This document shows positions 2,231 to 60,766 of a stretch of 64,000 bases of DNA, piece by piece (the first letter of the stretch is position 1; the number at the start of each line of letters is the position of its first letter). The translations under genes were made by a program, and so were the position numbers. This stretch comes from Enterobacteria phage phiC600P9, in sequence record MZ681930.1; one strand, 5' to 3'. The notes below the pieces were generated by a model that saw only the letters and a list, made by a program, of their open reading frames with translations, was not told the DNA's origin and did no database searches.

Positions 2231-3514
2231 ATGGCTAAAATCAACGAACTTCTGCGCGAATCAACCACAACGAATAGCAACTCAATCGGTCGCCCAAATC
2301 TCGTTGCTTTGACTCGCGCTACCACTAAATTAATATATTCTGACATTGTAGCAACGCAAAGAACTAATCAACCTGTTGCTGCTTTTTATGGTATCAAATA
2401 CCTTAACCCAGATAACGAATTTACATTTAAAACTGGTGCTACTTACGCTGGCGAAGCTGGGTACGTAGACCGAGAACAAATCACAGAATTAACAGAAGAG
2501 TCTAAATTAACTCTCAATAAAGGCGATTTATTCAAATATAATAATATCGTTTATAAAGTATTAGAAGATACACCATTTGCTGATATTGAAGAAAGCGATT
2601 TAGAATTAGCTCTTCAGATTGCAATTGTTCTTTTAAAGGTTCGTCTATTTTCTGATGCTGCAGTAACAAGCAAATTTGAAAGCTCTGATAGCGAAATTGC
2701 GGATGCTAGATTCCAGATTAATAAATGGCAAACCGCAGTTAAATCTCGTAAACTTAAAACTGGCATCACAGTTGAATTAGCGCAAGATTTAGAAGCAAAT
2801 GGATTCGATGCTCCTAATTTCTTGGAAGATTTGCTTGCAACTGAAATGGCAGATGAAATCAATAAAGATATTCTGCAATCTTTGATTACAGTATCAAAAC
2901 GCTATAAAGTTACAGGAATTACTGATACTGGATTCATTGATTTGAGTTATGCATCTGCACCTGAAGCTGGTCGTTCATTATACCGAATGGTATGTGAAAT
3001 GGTTTCGCATATCCAAAAAGAATCAACTTATACTGCAACGTTCTGTGTTGCTTCAGCTCGTGCCGCTGCGATTCTTGCTGCATCAGGTTGGTTAAAACAT
3101 AAACCAGAAGATGATAAATATCTTTCACAAAATGCCTACGGGTTCTTAGCTAATGGTTTACCGCTTTATTGCGATACTAACAGCCCATTAGATTATGTAA
3201 TCGTTGGTGTAGTAGAAAATATTGGCGAAAAAGAAATTGTTGGATCAATTTTCTATGCTCCGTATACAGAAGGTCTTGACTTAGATGACCCTGAACATGT
3301 AGGTGCATTTAAAGTTGTAGTTGATCCAGAAAGCTTACAACCATCTATCGGTTTATTGGTTAGATATGCTTTATCTGCAAATCCTTACACCGTAGCAAAA
3401 GATGAAAAAGAAGCAAGAATAATTGATGGTGGAGACATGGATAAAATGGCGGGTCGTTCAGATTTGTCTGTTTTATTAGGTGTTAAATTACCAAAAATTA
3501 TCGTTGATGAATAA
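2231..3514 (+). CDS. 24: Capsid vertex protein gp24
   Basis: 427 aa ORF, gp23 paralogue, position after gene 23. Confidence 0.95.
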   Translation: MAKINELLRESTTTNSNSIGRPNLVALTRATTKLIYSDIVATQRTNQPVAAFYGIKYLNPDNEFTFKTGATYAGEAGYVDREQITELTEESKLTLNKGDLFKYNNIVYKVLEDTPFADIEESDLELALQIAIVLLKVRLFSDAAVTSKFESSDSEIADARFQINKWQTAVKSRKLKTGITVELAQDLEANGFDAPNFLEDLLATEMADEINKDILQSLITVSKRYKVTGITDTGFIDLSYASAPEAGRSLYRMVCEMVSHIQKESTYTATFCVASARAAAILAASGWLKHKPEDDKYLSQNAYGFLANGLPLYCDTNSPLDYVIVGVVENIGEKEIVGSIFYAPYTEGLDLDDPEHVGAFKVVVDPESLQPSIGLLVRYALSANPYTVAKDEKEARIIDGGDMDKMAGRSDLSVLLGVKLPKIIVDE

Positions 3515-3516
3515 AA

Positions 3517-3545
3517 CAAAGGGACCGAAAGGTCCCTTTTTTATT
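3517..3545. terminator. Bidirectional hairpin terminator between gene 24 (+) and rnlB (-)
   Basis: GGGACC-GAAA-GGTCCC stem flanked by A-run upstream and T-run downstream. Confidence 0.7.
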
Positions 3546-4549
3546 TAACTTACCAATTCAATCCAAGCCGGACGAAGTACATCTTGTACCATTTTAACTA
3601 ATTCCTTTTTAATCAAAGAAGGATTATCCGCTTGAGTTAAAGTAATACCTTCACGAGAAGTTTCTTCCAAAATATCTTGAACAGTTAGTCCCATCACCTT
3701 TCCAAAATCCTTTGGACCAATTTCGCCAATTTTAGAAATAACGTTATTTACTCGGTTCAGTGTAACGTAGCAAGCTAAAATTCCCAGCAATTTATTATCA
3801 GCTTCTGACAGCTCAACTTTAGCTTTAATAGGCTTATCAGACTTTTTCTTTTCGCTAAATTTAGAGTTCTTGCATTTAATAGCTACACGATTGCCATTAG
3901 GCATCCAAGAAGGATAACAAGGTTTCAATACATAACCTTCAGCGGTAAATACTTCGCCTTTTGCTTCGGCATTCCAAACGCATTTATTTGCATCAACTAA
4001 TCCAGCATGGTCTACTGTAAAATTATAATCCTGGACGACAGAATCTAAATCGTTTGGCAATTTAATAAGCTCTTCAAATTTACCGCGACCTAAAAGTGGA
4101 GCCATTTTAAATTTAAATGTATTACAGAATGATTCCATCATATAATCATCGACATAAGTCACATCACCACTTTCGGTAGTAACAATAATGTCAAATACAT
4201 AAAAATCTTTATCGCCATAATCGACATTCTTCTGAATGCCAGGTCCAGCGAATTCGCCAAAGACTTGATAAGATACAACCGCTGAGGTTTCCATAATATC
4301 TTGTACTGCTTTAATGGAATCAGCGTAATTCTTTAGAATAATTTCATACCCAAAGAAATCTTCAGCAGGAAGAATAGGACCAGTACGTTTAGCGCAAGTT
4401 ACTTTATCGCGCTCAATAATCAATGAGAAATTTGTGCCGTGAATCTTTTCACGAGCTACCCACTCCCCACCAGTCAATCCCAAGCTATAAAGTTTTTCAA
4501 TAAATTTAGAGTTGTAATGATTTTCAAGACTGCTATACTTTTTAAACAT
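3545..4549 (-). CDS. rnlB: RNA ligase 2 (Rnl2)
   Basis: 334 aa ORF, N-terminus [19 protein letters not shown] and KIHGTN adenylation motif; T4 Rnl2 length. Confidence 0.93.
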
Positions 4550-30622: not shown

Positions 30623-32033
<1,411 letters not shown>

Positions 32034-33468: not shown

Positions 33469-35056
<1,588 letters not shown>

Positions 35057-58224: not shown

Positions 58225-58374
58225 TTACTGCATGACTGTGATAACTGTCATGATAACGCGTTGAATGCCGAACGCAAGAAGACCTCCTGCTACGGCTGGA
58301 ACAACACCTAAACCCGCTAGTAAAATGCCGCCAGATACTAACGCCGCGCTTGTAATACCAATGAATGGACTCAT
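58225..58374 (-). CDS. Small hydrophobic membrane protein, translationally coupled to gene 52
   Basis: 49 aa ORF below the track cutoff: MSPFIGITSAALVSGGILLAGLGVVPAVAGGLLAFGIQRVIMTVITVMQ; ATGA overlap with the gene 52 stop. Confidence 0.6.
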   Translation of the reverse strand: MSPFIGITSAALVSGGILLAGLGVVPAVAGGLLAFGIQRVIMTVITVMQ

Positions 58375-59699
58375 TTGATTTCCTCTAAATCTTTGGTGTA
58401 TTCGGTAACTACATCAGTAGTTTTCCAATATTCGTTTTCTTCTTTCTTAGCTTTAGCTTCTTCAGCAAGTTTCTTTGCTTCATCAGAAGTCATATGAAAA
58501 ATATTCATACCGACTAGTTTATCAACATAAGAAGAATACATCTCAATTTTAGAAAGTTCTTCGGTCAGTTCTTTACGAGTTTTACCCTGTACAACAATTT
58601 CACCTGAAATTACTTTCTTAATGAAATGTGCCTTGGCAAAGGCTAAACGAAAAGCTGACTCAGTTTCTTTGATTTTGTTATCAATTCGTTTTTGGACATA
58701 AGTTTTACGAACTTCAACGAAGTCTTTGATTAAATCAACTACGTTATCGTAAACTTGTAGCTTTCCTTTCTCATTAATAACGGTAATATTCTGGGAACGA
58801 CGCTCAATCAACCCGAAGTCTTTCATAATTTTTGCATGGCGTTCTTCTTCATTATCGCTCAAAGAATATTCTTTACGGAATTTAACTTTAAAGCCAAAAC
58901 CATGCTCACCACAAGCATCATCCCATGTAATGAAGCCTTTATCTTCAAGTGGGTCTAAGATTTTACTCACATAAGTTTCACGATCATACTTATACGGAAT
59001 CTCAGTGATATGCATTTGAGTTCGTGAAGTAAACTTATATGTTCCACGAATTTCATATTGTCCATCAATTTCAACGACTTCACCACGAAATTCTGGGAAT
59101 TCTACCTTCGGTTTAGTTACTTTCTTTCCTTGAAGAGCTTGCAATACAGCTTTCTTGACAGAAGAAACACTATGAGGAAGAATGTAAGTTGCATAACCAG
59201 TTGCAATACCGGAAACACCATTAAGAAGAACAGTAGGAATAACAGGCAAATAGAAAGCAGGCGGAATGTGTTCTTTATCTTGATGTACCGGAGCATATTC
59301 AGTATCTTTATATACGTTATAGAAATTTTTACTTACACGAGCAAAAATATAACGACTTGCTGCTGCTTTTTGGACAGTACGAGAACCAAAGTTTCCTTGA
59401 CCATCTAACAGAGGAAAGTTATTATTCCAAGTGTTAGCCATCAAAGCACCTGCGTCTTGCGCAGAGTTTTCACCATGATGATATCCAAGGTCCGCTACAC
59501 CACCTGCAATAGAAGCGAGTTTGTGAAACTTATCTTTATTTCCTCGTGCCAAATCAAGAGCTCGAGCAATAACAAATCGTTGAACTGGCTTAAATCCATC
59601 AATCATATTTGGAATAGCACGATTTTCAACCGTGTACATAGCATAAGCCAATGCTTCATTATCAATGATACTTTTTAAATCGCGATTATTCAGTTGCAT
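58371..59699 (-). CDS. 52: DNA topoisomerase II medium subunit gp52
   Basis: 442 aa ORF, GyrA-like N-terminal domain, synteny. Confidence 0.92.
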   Translation of the reverse strand: MQLNNRDLKSIIDNEALAYAMYTVENRAIPNMIDGFKPVQRFVIARALDLARGNKDKFHKLASIAGGVADLGYHHGENSAQDAGALMANTWNNNFPLLDGQGNFGSRTVQKAAASRYIFARVSKNFYNVYKDTEYAPVHQDKEHIPPAFYLPVIPTVLLNGVSGIATGYATYILPHSVSSVKKAVLQALQGKKVTKPKVEFPEFRGEVVEIDGQYEIRGTYKFTSRTQMHITEIPYKYDRETYVSKILDPLEDKGFITWDDACGEHGFGFKVKFRKEYSLSDNEEERHAKIMKDFGLIERRSQNITVINEKGKLQVYDNVVDLIKDFVEVRKTYVQKRIDNKIKETESAFRLAFAKAHFIKKVISGEIVVQGKTRKELTEELSKIEMYSSYVDKLVGMNIFHMTSDEAKKLAEEAKAKKEENEYWKTTDVVTEYTKDLEEIK

Positions 59700-59836
59700 A
59701 AATTTACCATACTAGTGAATGTAGTGCCATAATAACATCAGAAATGAAAAGCACGACTTGAATTAATCCGAACATTATTCCGTAATATAATGCTACCAAT
59801 AAAGTAGCAAGGGCTAATGAATAGCCCAAGATTTTC

Positions 59837-59995
59837 TTAATCATTAGTAGATAACAACACAAATGTTAAATATGCACACATACCCTGAGCTAAAGCTTGC
59901 GAAAACACACTGCTGGCATCAATACAGATAGTTAAAACACATGCTACTATCCAACAAATAAATGAAATAACTCCTAATAATTTTGCGATATTCAT
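59837..59995 (-). CDS. ac: Small membrane protein Ac (acridine sensitivity)
   Basis: ORF track 59837..60025; start MNIAKLLG at 59995 with SD GAGGAG gives 52 aa with one transmembrane helix. Confidence 0.65.
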   Translation of the reverse strand: MNIAKLLGVISFICWIVACVLTICIDASSVFSQALAQGMCAYLTFVLLSTND

Positions 59996-60005
59996 AATAT
60001 TCTCC

Positions 60006-60161
60006 TCAACTATTTTTAGAACCAATGTACGCGAATAATGATAAAATCGCTAATACGCCCTGAGCTGATGCTTGCAAAAATACTGAAGTTTCTCCAGTTA
60101 TTACTGTTCCGATACATAAAAAGAACCAACAGAAAAAGGCTATACCGTGAACAAATTTCAT
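60006..60161 (-). CDS. Ac paralogue, small membrane protein
   Basis: 51 aa ORF below the track cutoff: MKFVHGIAFFCWFFLCIGTVITGETSVFLQASAQGV...; shares the SVF.QA.AQG block with Ac; SD GAGGAAA. Confidence 0.6.
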   Translation of the reverse strand: MKFVHGIAFFCWFFLCIGTVITGETSVFLQASAQGVLAILSLFAYIGSKNS

Positions 60162-60168
60162 ATTTTCC

Positions 60169-60249
60169 TCACTGGCGTCCGAAGACGCCTTTGGTTTTAA
60201 GATTGTTACGATAGAACTGCATCACGTGTTCGTTGTGGAAATTACTCAT
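60169..60249 (-). CDS. stp: Stp peptide (suppressor of three-prime phosphatase)
   Basis: 26 aa [29 protein letters not shown], matching T4 Stp as recalled; start overlaps the ndd stop (TAATG). Confidence 0.85.
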
Positions 60250-60707
60250 TAATATGCCTGCAAAACAAATTTAAAGTTATCAGCCAACATACGATTCATT
60301 TCTTCAAGCGTTTGATACTCAGAATGATGGTTACGAGTAAACGCCAAAGCTAACTGACCTTTTCCAAATCCTGTCGTCAGAGGTTTCATCTTAGAAGCAG
60401 GCAGATAAAACACTGTGTATGGAACATTGTTATTTGCAATAGTACGCGCAAGTTGAGACCGACGTTGACGAATATGACTTAGAACTGCACTGAATCCTTG
60501 CTTAGAACGCTGATTACCTACATAAAATCGTGCAGACACACATGGATTACTAAATGGACGACCATCTAATTTACTTACTAAAAAGTAAAATCCAGGTTTA
60601 GATAAAATATCTTTATGCGGAGTTCCTAAAAACCATTCACCACCCTTGATTGTACCAATAACAGTTGCGCCTGCATTATTCAGATCAGTAACAGTCATAT
60701 ATTTCAT
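60249..60707 (-). CDS. ndd: Nucleoid disruption protein Ndd
   Basis: 152 aa ORF, T4 Ndd length and position. Confidence 0.88.
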
Positions 60708-60766
60708 TTTAATTTCCTCTAATTATTTTCTACTCCAAGGCCGCATGAATACATACGGCCGATAAA

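Follow-up and report, generated by a model that had tools for sequence, protein, structure and literature searches.

Between ndd and gene 52, Enterobacteria phage phiC600P9 encodes two small predicted membrane peptides of the Ac family where phage T4 encodes one. The presence of the second gene raises the question of whether ac was duplicated recently in the lineage of this phage, or whether the pair is old and T4 represents another state of the same locus. This question is addressed here in a stretch of 64,000 nucleotides of phiC600P9 DNA (sequence record MZ681930.1), referred to below as the window. A first-pass annotation of the window, made from the sequence alone, had described a 26-aa ORF as Stp and two ac-like peptides beside it, and had suggested that the ac duplication may be lineage-specific.

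The ndd-52 gene block

All genes of the block lie on the minus strand, as reading of both strands established, and are transcribed in the order ndd, stp, acA, acB, 52.1, and 52, where acA and acB are our own labels. The features of the block are the following.

60249..60707, minus strand: ndd, 152 aa, nucleoid disruption protein (Pfam PF06591 Phage_T4_Ndd, E 1.4e-95); annotated as Ndd in phiC600P9 and T4
60169..60249, minus strand: stp, 26 aa (PF08133, 75.3 bits; phrog_6763, E 4.4e-21)
60174..60189, minus strand: hairpin GGCGUC-UUCG-GACGCC with a tetraloop of the C(UUCG)G type, within Stp codons 20-25
60006..60161, minus strand: acA, 51-aa Ac-family membrane peptide without a T4 counterpart (phrog_2501, E 4.9e-26)
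59997..60162, minus strand: 166-bp segment comprising a Shine-Dalgarno sequence and acA, missing from T4 as a single clean gap in the DNA alignment with NC_000866
59837..59995, minus strand: acB, 52 aa, T4 Ac orthologue (phrog_2501, E 3.7e-25)
59704..59844, minus strand: 52.1, 46 aa, predicted membrane peptide (Pfam DUF7396, E 1.3e-22); gene and overlap as in T4
58371..59699, minus strand: gene 52, DNA topoisomerase II medium subunit, which bounds the block downstream (ORF list; phiC600P9 and T4 annotation)

The three small ORFs of the first-pass annotation were recovered with the same sequences and positions, all on the minus strand, and a fourth small gene that it did not mention, 52.1, belongs to the same block. 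The two ac peptides had been placed upstream of stp, which is correct only when positions are counted along the plus strand; along the transcript, both ac genes are downstream of stp. The TAA stop codon of ndd and the ATG of stp share 1 nt at 60249 (TAATG), and the ATG of 52.1 overlaps the acB stop codon by 8 nt (ATGATTAA). Each ac gene has its own Shine-Dalgarno sequence, as had been noted before: GAGG lies 5 nt ahead of the acA ATG and overlaps the stp stop codon, and GAGGAG lies 6 nt ahead of the acB ATG. In T4 (NC_000866), the corresponding genes run 52, 52.1, ac, stp, ndd and overlap in the same way.

A megablast search with positions 59650-60760 matched 545 phage records, nearly all of them from Tequatrovirus. 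Over this interval, the window is 100% identical to the phiC600P9 record MT630408, whose annotation lists two "acridine resistance" genes along with ndd and the topoisomerase, but neither stp nor 52.1. A promoter scan of the region found sites no more frequently than in shuffled sequence, and no promoter was assigned. Taken together, we consider it very probable that the region is a standard Tequatrovirus early-gene block, ndd-stp-ac-52.1-52, which is organized through overlapping stop and start codons and carries an extra ac copy relative to T4. Much of this organization is familiar: stp with its ndd overlap and ac belong to the textbook description of T4, and dozens of GenBank records already carry annotations of both ac genes.

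The interval varies further among related phages. An extra 57-aa predicted membrane ORF lies between ndd and stp/ac in UFV-AREG1, JS98, and a Klebsiella Jiaodavirus (loci L003, 947-1120; L013, 947-1120; and L012, 1037-1210). This ORF follows the pattern M(K/R)(A/T)(L/F)FVMGY...FERLCKMCG(V/I)YE, overlaps both of its neighbors, and is missing from T4 and the window. In JS98, a membrane ORF of 53 aa is additionally inserted between the ac-like gene and 52.1. The ndd-52 interval is accordingly a hotspot at which tiny membrane-protein genes are gained and lost.

Stp and its relatives

The identification of the 26-aa ORF as Stp is secure. Its translation is identical to T4 Stp (NP_049878; PF08133 Nuclease_act) at 26 of 26 residues, including all of the N-terminal 18, the region that bears the activity, and the DNA differs at only two synonymous sites. 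The PF08133 match covers residues 1-26 of 26 and compares with a gathering score of 25 bits. The gene also occupies the position of T4 stp directly downstream of ndd, with the same TAATG overlap; the start of the ORF on the ndd stop codon had been noted in the first-pass annotation. Both loci share the 3' hairpin and the downstream ribosome-binding site. The possibility that the small ORFs are chance ORFs was rejected on the basis of the PF08133 and phrog_2501 profile scores.

In T4, Stp inhibits the type IC enzyme EcoprrI, which leads to activation of the tRNA-Lys anticodon nuclease PrrC; the cleaved tRNA is subsequently healed and sealed by the phage enzymes Pnk and Rnl1 (PMC3014915; PMC12707154). 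The activity of Stp is carried by its N-terminal 18 residues (PMC3014915). The biology quoted in the first-pass annotation agrees with this account (PMC3014915), and the genes for both repair enzymes, pseT (30812-31720) and rnlA (33469-34629), do lie within the window as it had indicated. By the published mechanism, Stp of this phage would inhibit EcoprrI in the host and unmask PrrC, after which Pnk and Rnl1 would repair the cut tRNA. Because the peptide is identical to T4 Stp, inhibition of restriction by EcoprrI and EcoR124I and activation of PrrC are expected of it. Elsewhere in the window, a 337-codon open frame near position 4447 on the minus strand carries the ligase motif KIHGTN, which would fit T4 RNA ligase 2 (rnlB).

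Upstream of the stp ATG there is only a weak AGG, at 7 nt. In UFV-AREG1 and JS98, stp overlaps by 8 nt the end of the extra 57-aa ORF and not ndd; in every arrangement, then, stp directly adjoins the ORF that precedes it, be it ndd or this extra ORF. The conserved overlap makes translational coupling of stp to ndd plausible.

The hairpin within stp is formed by Stp codons 20-25 (GVFGR), and folding places its end 3 nt before the acA Shine-Dalgarno sequence. Read on the plus strand, the hairpin is a terminator-like hit of the scan, followed by TTTGGTTTT. The structure is kept in JS98, where a C-to-U change preserves pairing as G-U, and in pEC-M719-6WT.2, where the loop is UUUG. Selection on RNA structure may partly account for the conservation of the otherwise dispensable C-terminus of Stp.

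Relatives of Stp also occur outside T-even phages. A tblastn search with Stp matched 798 phage records. In Kagunavirus MH051334, an unannotated 25-aa ORF at 3452-3526 (L014, 1494-1571) is identical to Stp at 23 of 25 residues and lies behind a terminator and a promoter-like TTGACT-17-TATATT. Further Stp-like ORFs of 25-30 aa (L015-L019) were found in Drexlerviridae (Braunvirinae, Nouzillyvirus, Tlsvirus), in Segzyvirus, and in a Klebsiella siphovirus; one siphovirus peptide, for example, reads MSNWHNEHIMQWYRRRIKAITSSYEV. These micro-ORFs, most of which are unannotated, have in common an ATG start and the core HNEH(V/I)MQ(F/W/L)YR, and all of the non-T-even examples pass the PF08133 gathering score, with 35-66 bits. 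A literature search found no paper that ties Stp to Kagunavirus, Drexlerviridae, Segzyvirus, or the siphovirus groups.

One database protein of 81 aa (P0019) joins the first 18 residues of Stp to full-length Ac through a frameshift, and represents a natural or laboratory stp frameshift mutant. Mutations of this kind in stp are selected on prr+ hosts.

Two diverged ac genes

The two peptides of about 51 aa encoded between stp and 52.1 share the motif SVF.QA.AQG, and their description as a related pair in the first-pass annotation can be made more specific: they are paralogues within the family of T4 Ac. Both cover positions 1-50 of 50 of the same PHROG, phrog_2501, and they are 41-43% identical to each other (43% over 40 residues, BLASTP E 6e-10). 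The shared PHROG, the BLASTP score, and the common motif also led us to reject the possibility that acA encodes an unrelated membrane peptide. In the local Pfam search, no model matched either peptide, a lone sub-threshold DUF1846_C line being taken as noise; PF26944 is precomputed for relatives.

Comparison with T4 determines which of the two genes corresponds to T4 ac. acB is collinear with it, and the two differ by five nucleotide changes, all synonymous, and a 3-nt indel. At the protein level, all 51 aligned residues are identical to T4 Ac (NP_049877; phrog_2501, PF26944), the only difference being one extra Thr near the C-terminus of acB, and the gene has the same slot and the same overlap with 52.1. 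Collinearity with T4 ac identifies acB as the orthologue of T4 Ac, and the position of acA inside the gap marks it as the additional gene. At both edges of the 166-bp gap, TATGAA occurs as a direct repeat, together with the ribosome-binding motif GAGGA. The acA peptide resembles T4 Ac in belonging to the same family, in length, in carrying both C-W and SVF.Q..QG, and in being predicted to form two helices. However, it is only about 40% identical, and a TGETSV turn replaces the IDASSV of T4 Ac. An irregular member of the family is T6 Ac (P0021), which has a frameshifted C-terminus (…AQGMWCIFNICVVI).

Across 17 family members, the invariant columns are C11, W12, T19, V27, F28, Q30, Q34, G35, A38, L40, and F43. 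Both peptides of the window show the family traits, namely a length of about 50 aa and two hydrophobic helices linked through a short polar turn, the first helix with an invariant C-W and the second with V-F-x-Q-x3-Q-G. The first-pass annotation had described them as single-helix peptides, a description that the structural predictions do not support. Hydropathy gives two hydrophobic stretches in each peptide, and AlphaFold2 places helices at residues 2-22 and 25-50 of acA (mean pLDDT 77.6); by both approaches, the helices meet at the conserved T-G-E-T turn. For T4 Ac, ESMfold also predicts a pair of helices, which meet at D26-A27 (bioRxiv 10.1101/2025.06.30.662393). acA and acB are thus predicted to be small two-helix proteins of the inner membrane. 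A Foldseek search of the acA model against the PDB returned zero matches, and for this reason no structural analogue such as AcrZ is claimed for it.

Substitution patterns show purifying selection. The dN/dS ratio is 0.16-0.41 among acA-type genes and 0.36-0.41 between acA and single-copy acA-type alleles, and dS between acA and acB is about 1. Both acA and acB look like maintained coding genes.

The ribosome-binding sites of the two genes differ in one further respect. The acB site GAGGAG (60002-60007) contains GGAG, whereas the acA site GAGGAAAA does not. GGAG is the motif cut by the T4 endoribonuclease RegB in early mRNAs; a review of this enzyme is given in PMC3014915. Because, of the two genes, only acB has this motif in its site, the paralogues might be inactivated differently during infection.

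Ancestry and meaning of the ac pair

The distribution of locus states bears directly on the age of the pair. The region at 59837-60249 was matched in 593 phage records, and 50 of these cover at least 80% of it, which corresponds to the tandem state. Most matching records show 64% coverage in two pieces, corresponding to the T4 state of stp and acB, and others, such as RB68, AUBRB02, and UFV-AREG1, have stp and an acA-type gene alone. In tblastn searches, acB matched 459 records at 80% identity or more and none at 60-80%, with two places in 50 records. The same search with acA matched 47 records at 95% or more, nine at 80-90%, and 39 at 60-80%, with other genera below. No acB-like gene was found outside Tequatrovirus by tblastn with acB. 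The type strains of ecml134, pss1, pst, and slur07 are tandem carriers, so that the state extends over at least four Tequatrovirus species recognized by ICTV. A scan of IMG/VR with Ndd yielded five loci, all of the T4 type, with acB directly after stp. In a search of a large protein database with the Ac alignment, 22 cluster representatives were found among 8000 scored word-sharing candidates, a figure that reflects allele diversity and not counts.

Single-copy genes of the acA type are not confined to Tequatrovirus. RB68, RB33, and UFV-AREG1 within the genus, as well as RB69 and JK36 (Mosigvirus), JS98 (Dhakavirus), and Klebsiella Jiaodavirus, have a single ac with the TGET(S/T)V turn and an overall sequence like that of acA; the turn is also present in the single ac of Mosigvirus F2 and of pEC-M719-6WT.2. 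acA is 39-88% identical to these single-copy genes. Its identity to the ac genes of Mosigvirus, Jiaodavirus, and Dhakavirus is 49, 47, and 39%, respectively, compared with 33, 33, and 23% for acB. The single-copy genes occupy the same locus as the ac pair of the window, between ndd/stp and 52.1. They are the only ac present and end in an ND/stop overlap with 52.1, whereas acA of the window ends in KNS-stop, with another ac gene behind it.

In neighbor-joining bootstraps, the acA-type genes and Mosigvirus ac formed a group that excludes acB in 76% of replicates, and acA and acB were sisters in 17.5%; the alignment comprises about 50 columns and acB has a long branch, and the placement of acA as ancestral could be a rate artefact. 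A few traits of acB are common to outgroups, namely SQALAQG, found in Jiaodavirus ac, and the N-terminal MNI, found in JS98 ac. The pair is old, being neither unique to this phage nor recent. There is moderate but not firm support for acA as the ancestral form, with T4 Ac in a tight, long-branched clade restricted to Tequatrovirus; the support is only moderate because the alignment is short and acB shares these few features with outgroups. The lack of acA in T4 is more likely to reflect loss, or an alternative allele state, than a new duplicate gained in the lineage of the window. On this account, the locus would have at least three interchangeable states: stp-acB, as in T4 and most Tequatroviruses; stp-acA-acB; and stp with an acA-type gene only, as in RB68 and UFV-AREG1. 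Deletions, or unequal recombination, at the ribosome-binding-site and start sequences that are repeated there (GAGGA...TATGAA) may convert one state into another, and T4 may have lost acA through a deletion between TATGAA/GAGGA repeats.

A recent tandem duplication of ac specific to this lineage, along the lines suggested in the first-pass annotation, would account for several features of the locus: the genes lie side by side, agree in length and family, and have a ribosome-binding site each; both occur together in only about 8% of matching records; and the stp/ac junction (AGTGAGGAAAATATGAA) has a similar counterpart ahead of acB (AGTTGAGGAGAATATTATGAA), which would follow from an in-place duplication of a unit made up of a ribosome-binding site and ac. 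The acA/acB spacer aligns about equally well with the stp/ac junction and with the ac/52.1 junction. However, copies that are merely 41-43% identical, with a dS of about 1, are difficult to reconcile with a recent event, and the tandem is present in about 50 records from at least four ICTV species. Moreover, other Tequatroviruses and three further genera have the acA type as their only ac; acA therefore predates the lineage, which makes a recent origin of the pair improbable. What stands of the earlier suggestion is that the tandem is confined to a minority of Tequatrovirus records (50 of 593); its spread over at least four species and its dS speak against lineage specificity in a narrower sense, and the occurrence of acA-type genes as the sole ac of other genera argues against the notion of a duplicate newly gained here.

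The tandem could instead have been stacked by illegitimate or unequal recombination between co-infecting T-even phages, one with an acA-type and one with an acB-type gene, in which case T4 would have lost nothing. T-even genomes are mosaic, and acA-type and acB-type genes alternate in the same stp-52.1 slot across Tequatroviruses, with the TATGAA repeat and GAGGA motif at the indel edges offering a crossover site. The tandem haplotype is also uniform, as seen in the 47 records that match acA at 95% or more, which is compatible with a single origin. Yet recombination leaves the source of the strongly divergent acB unexplained: because no acB-like gene was found outside Tequatrovirus, a step of duplication and divergence, or of rapid divergence, is still needed. 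The present data fit an old duplication followed by differential loss as well as they fit stacking by recombination, and we regard the latter origin as possible but doubtful. A different kind of objection is that acA may be a decaying, non-functional relic and that only acB matters, given that T4 and most Tequatroviruses manage without acA and that its reading frame is disrupted in one tandem record. In the latter, Tequatrovirus BCH953P4 (OZ035784), a 1-nt deletion in the T5 run of acA, aligned near 60078, would shift the frame; the cause is either a sequencing error in the homopolymer or a real loss, which would signal that acA is dispensable. Against decay stand the 47 records, with 95% amino-acid identity or more, in which the ORF is intact and has a ribosome-binding site, the dN/dS of 0.16-0.41, the retained C-W, SVF-Q, and QG motifs, and the many phages in which an acA-type gene is the only ac; a relic is accordingly the least probable of these explanations and very hard to sustain. 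The preferred reading remains an old pair of maintained genes, of which T4 has only acB.

The functional side of the family is known from its acB type. Loss of ac function renders T4 resistant to acriflavine, expression of T4 ac sensitizes E. coli, and a block of AcrAB-TolC efflux by T4 Ac is a proposal only (bioRxiv 10.1101/2025.06.30.662393; PMC13250531). The acridine phenotype is known only for T4 and T2 Ac, both of the acB type (bioRxiv 10.1101/2025.06.30.662393; PMC13250531). A recent preprint surveyed BLASTN homologues at 93-100% identity and mentions no paralogue (bioRxiv 10.1101/2025.06.30.662393); because of this limit, the survey covered the acB type only. Our literature search found no discussion of an acA paralogue and no acridine phenotype reported for acA-type genes. 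T4 Ac makes infected cells accumulate acridines. By extension, acA and acB may both be two-helix inner-membrane peptides made early and directed at one kind of host target, in which case they would be redundant or would have diverged in specificity.

Functional analogy can be drawn with AcrZ, a small AcrB-binding protein, and with other small inner-membrane regulators of transporters, which like Ac are hydrophobic and about 50 aa long. The analogy is functional only: AcrZ has a single helix, and neither Pfam nor Foldseek against the PDB gave a sequence or fold match to Ac. An action on AcrB/AcrAB-TolC has been proposed for T4 Ac (bioRxiv 10.1101/2025.06.30.662393).

We tentatively propose that T4 Ac, a subject of study for 60 years, is a derived paralogue restricted to Tequatrovirus, that the acA type is ancestral across T-even genera, and that two-copy phages may deploy two diverged inner-membrane effectors, for example against RND efflux pumps; as part of the same tentative view, the Stp family would not be T-even-specific and would constitute a general micro-peptide against type IC restriction. 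About 1 in 10 Tequatroviruses have two diverged ac copies and others have the acA type alone, whereas the use of ac as a counter-selectable marker, in forward-mutation assays and in engineering, assumes one copy. If the proposal is correct, knocking out a single ac gene would not confer acridine resistance in two-copy phages, and acA and acB would perhaps differ in specificity or form a heteromer. Comparison of the two natural paralogues would also provide a sharper test of the proposal that Ac blocks AcrAB-TolC.
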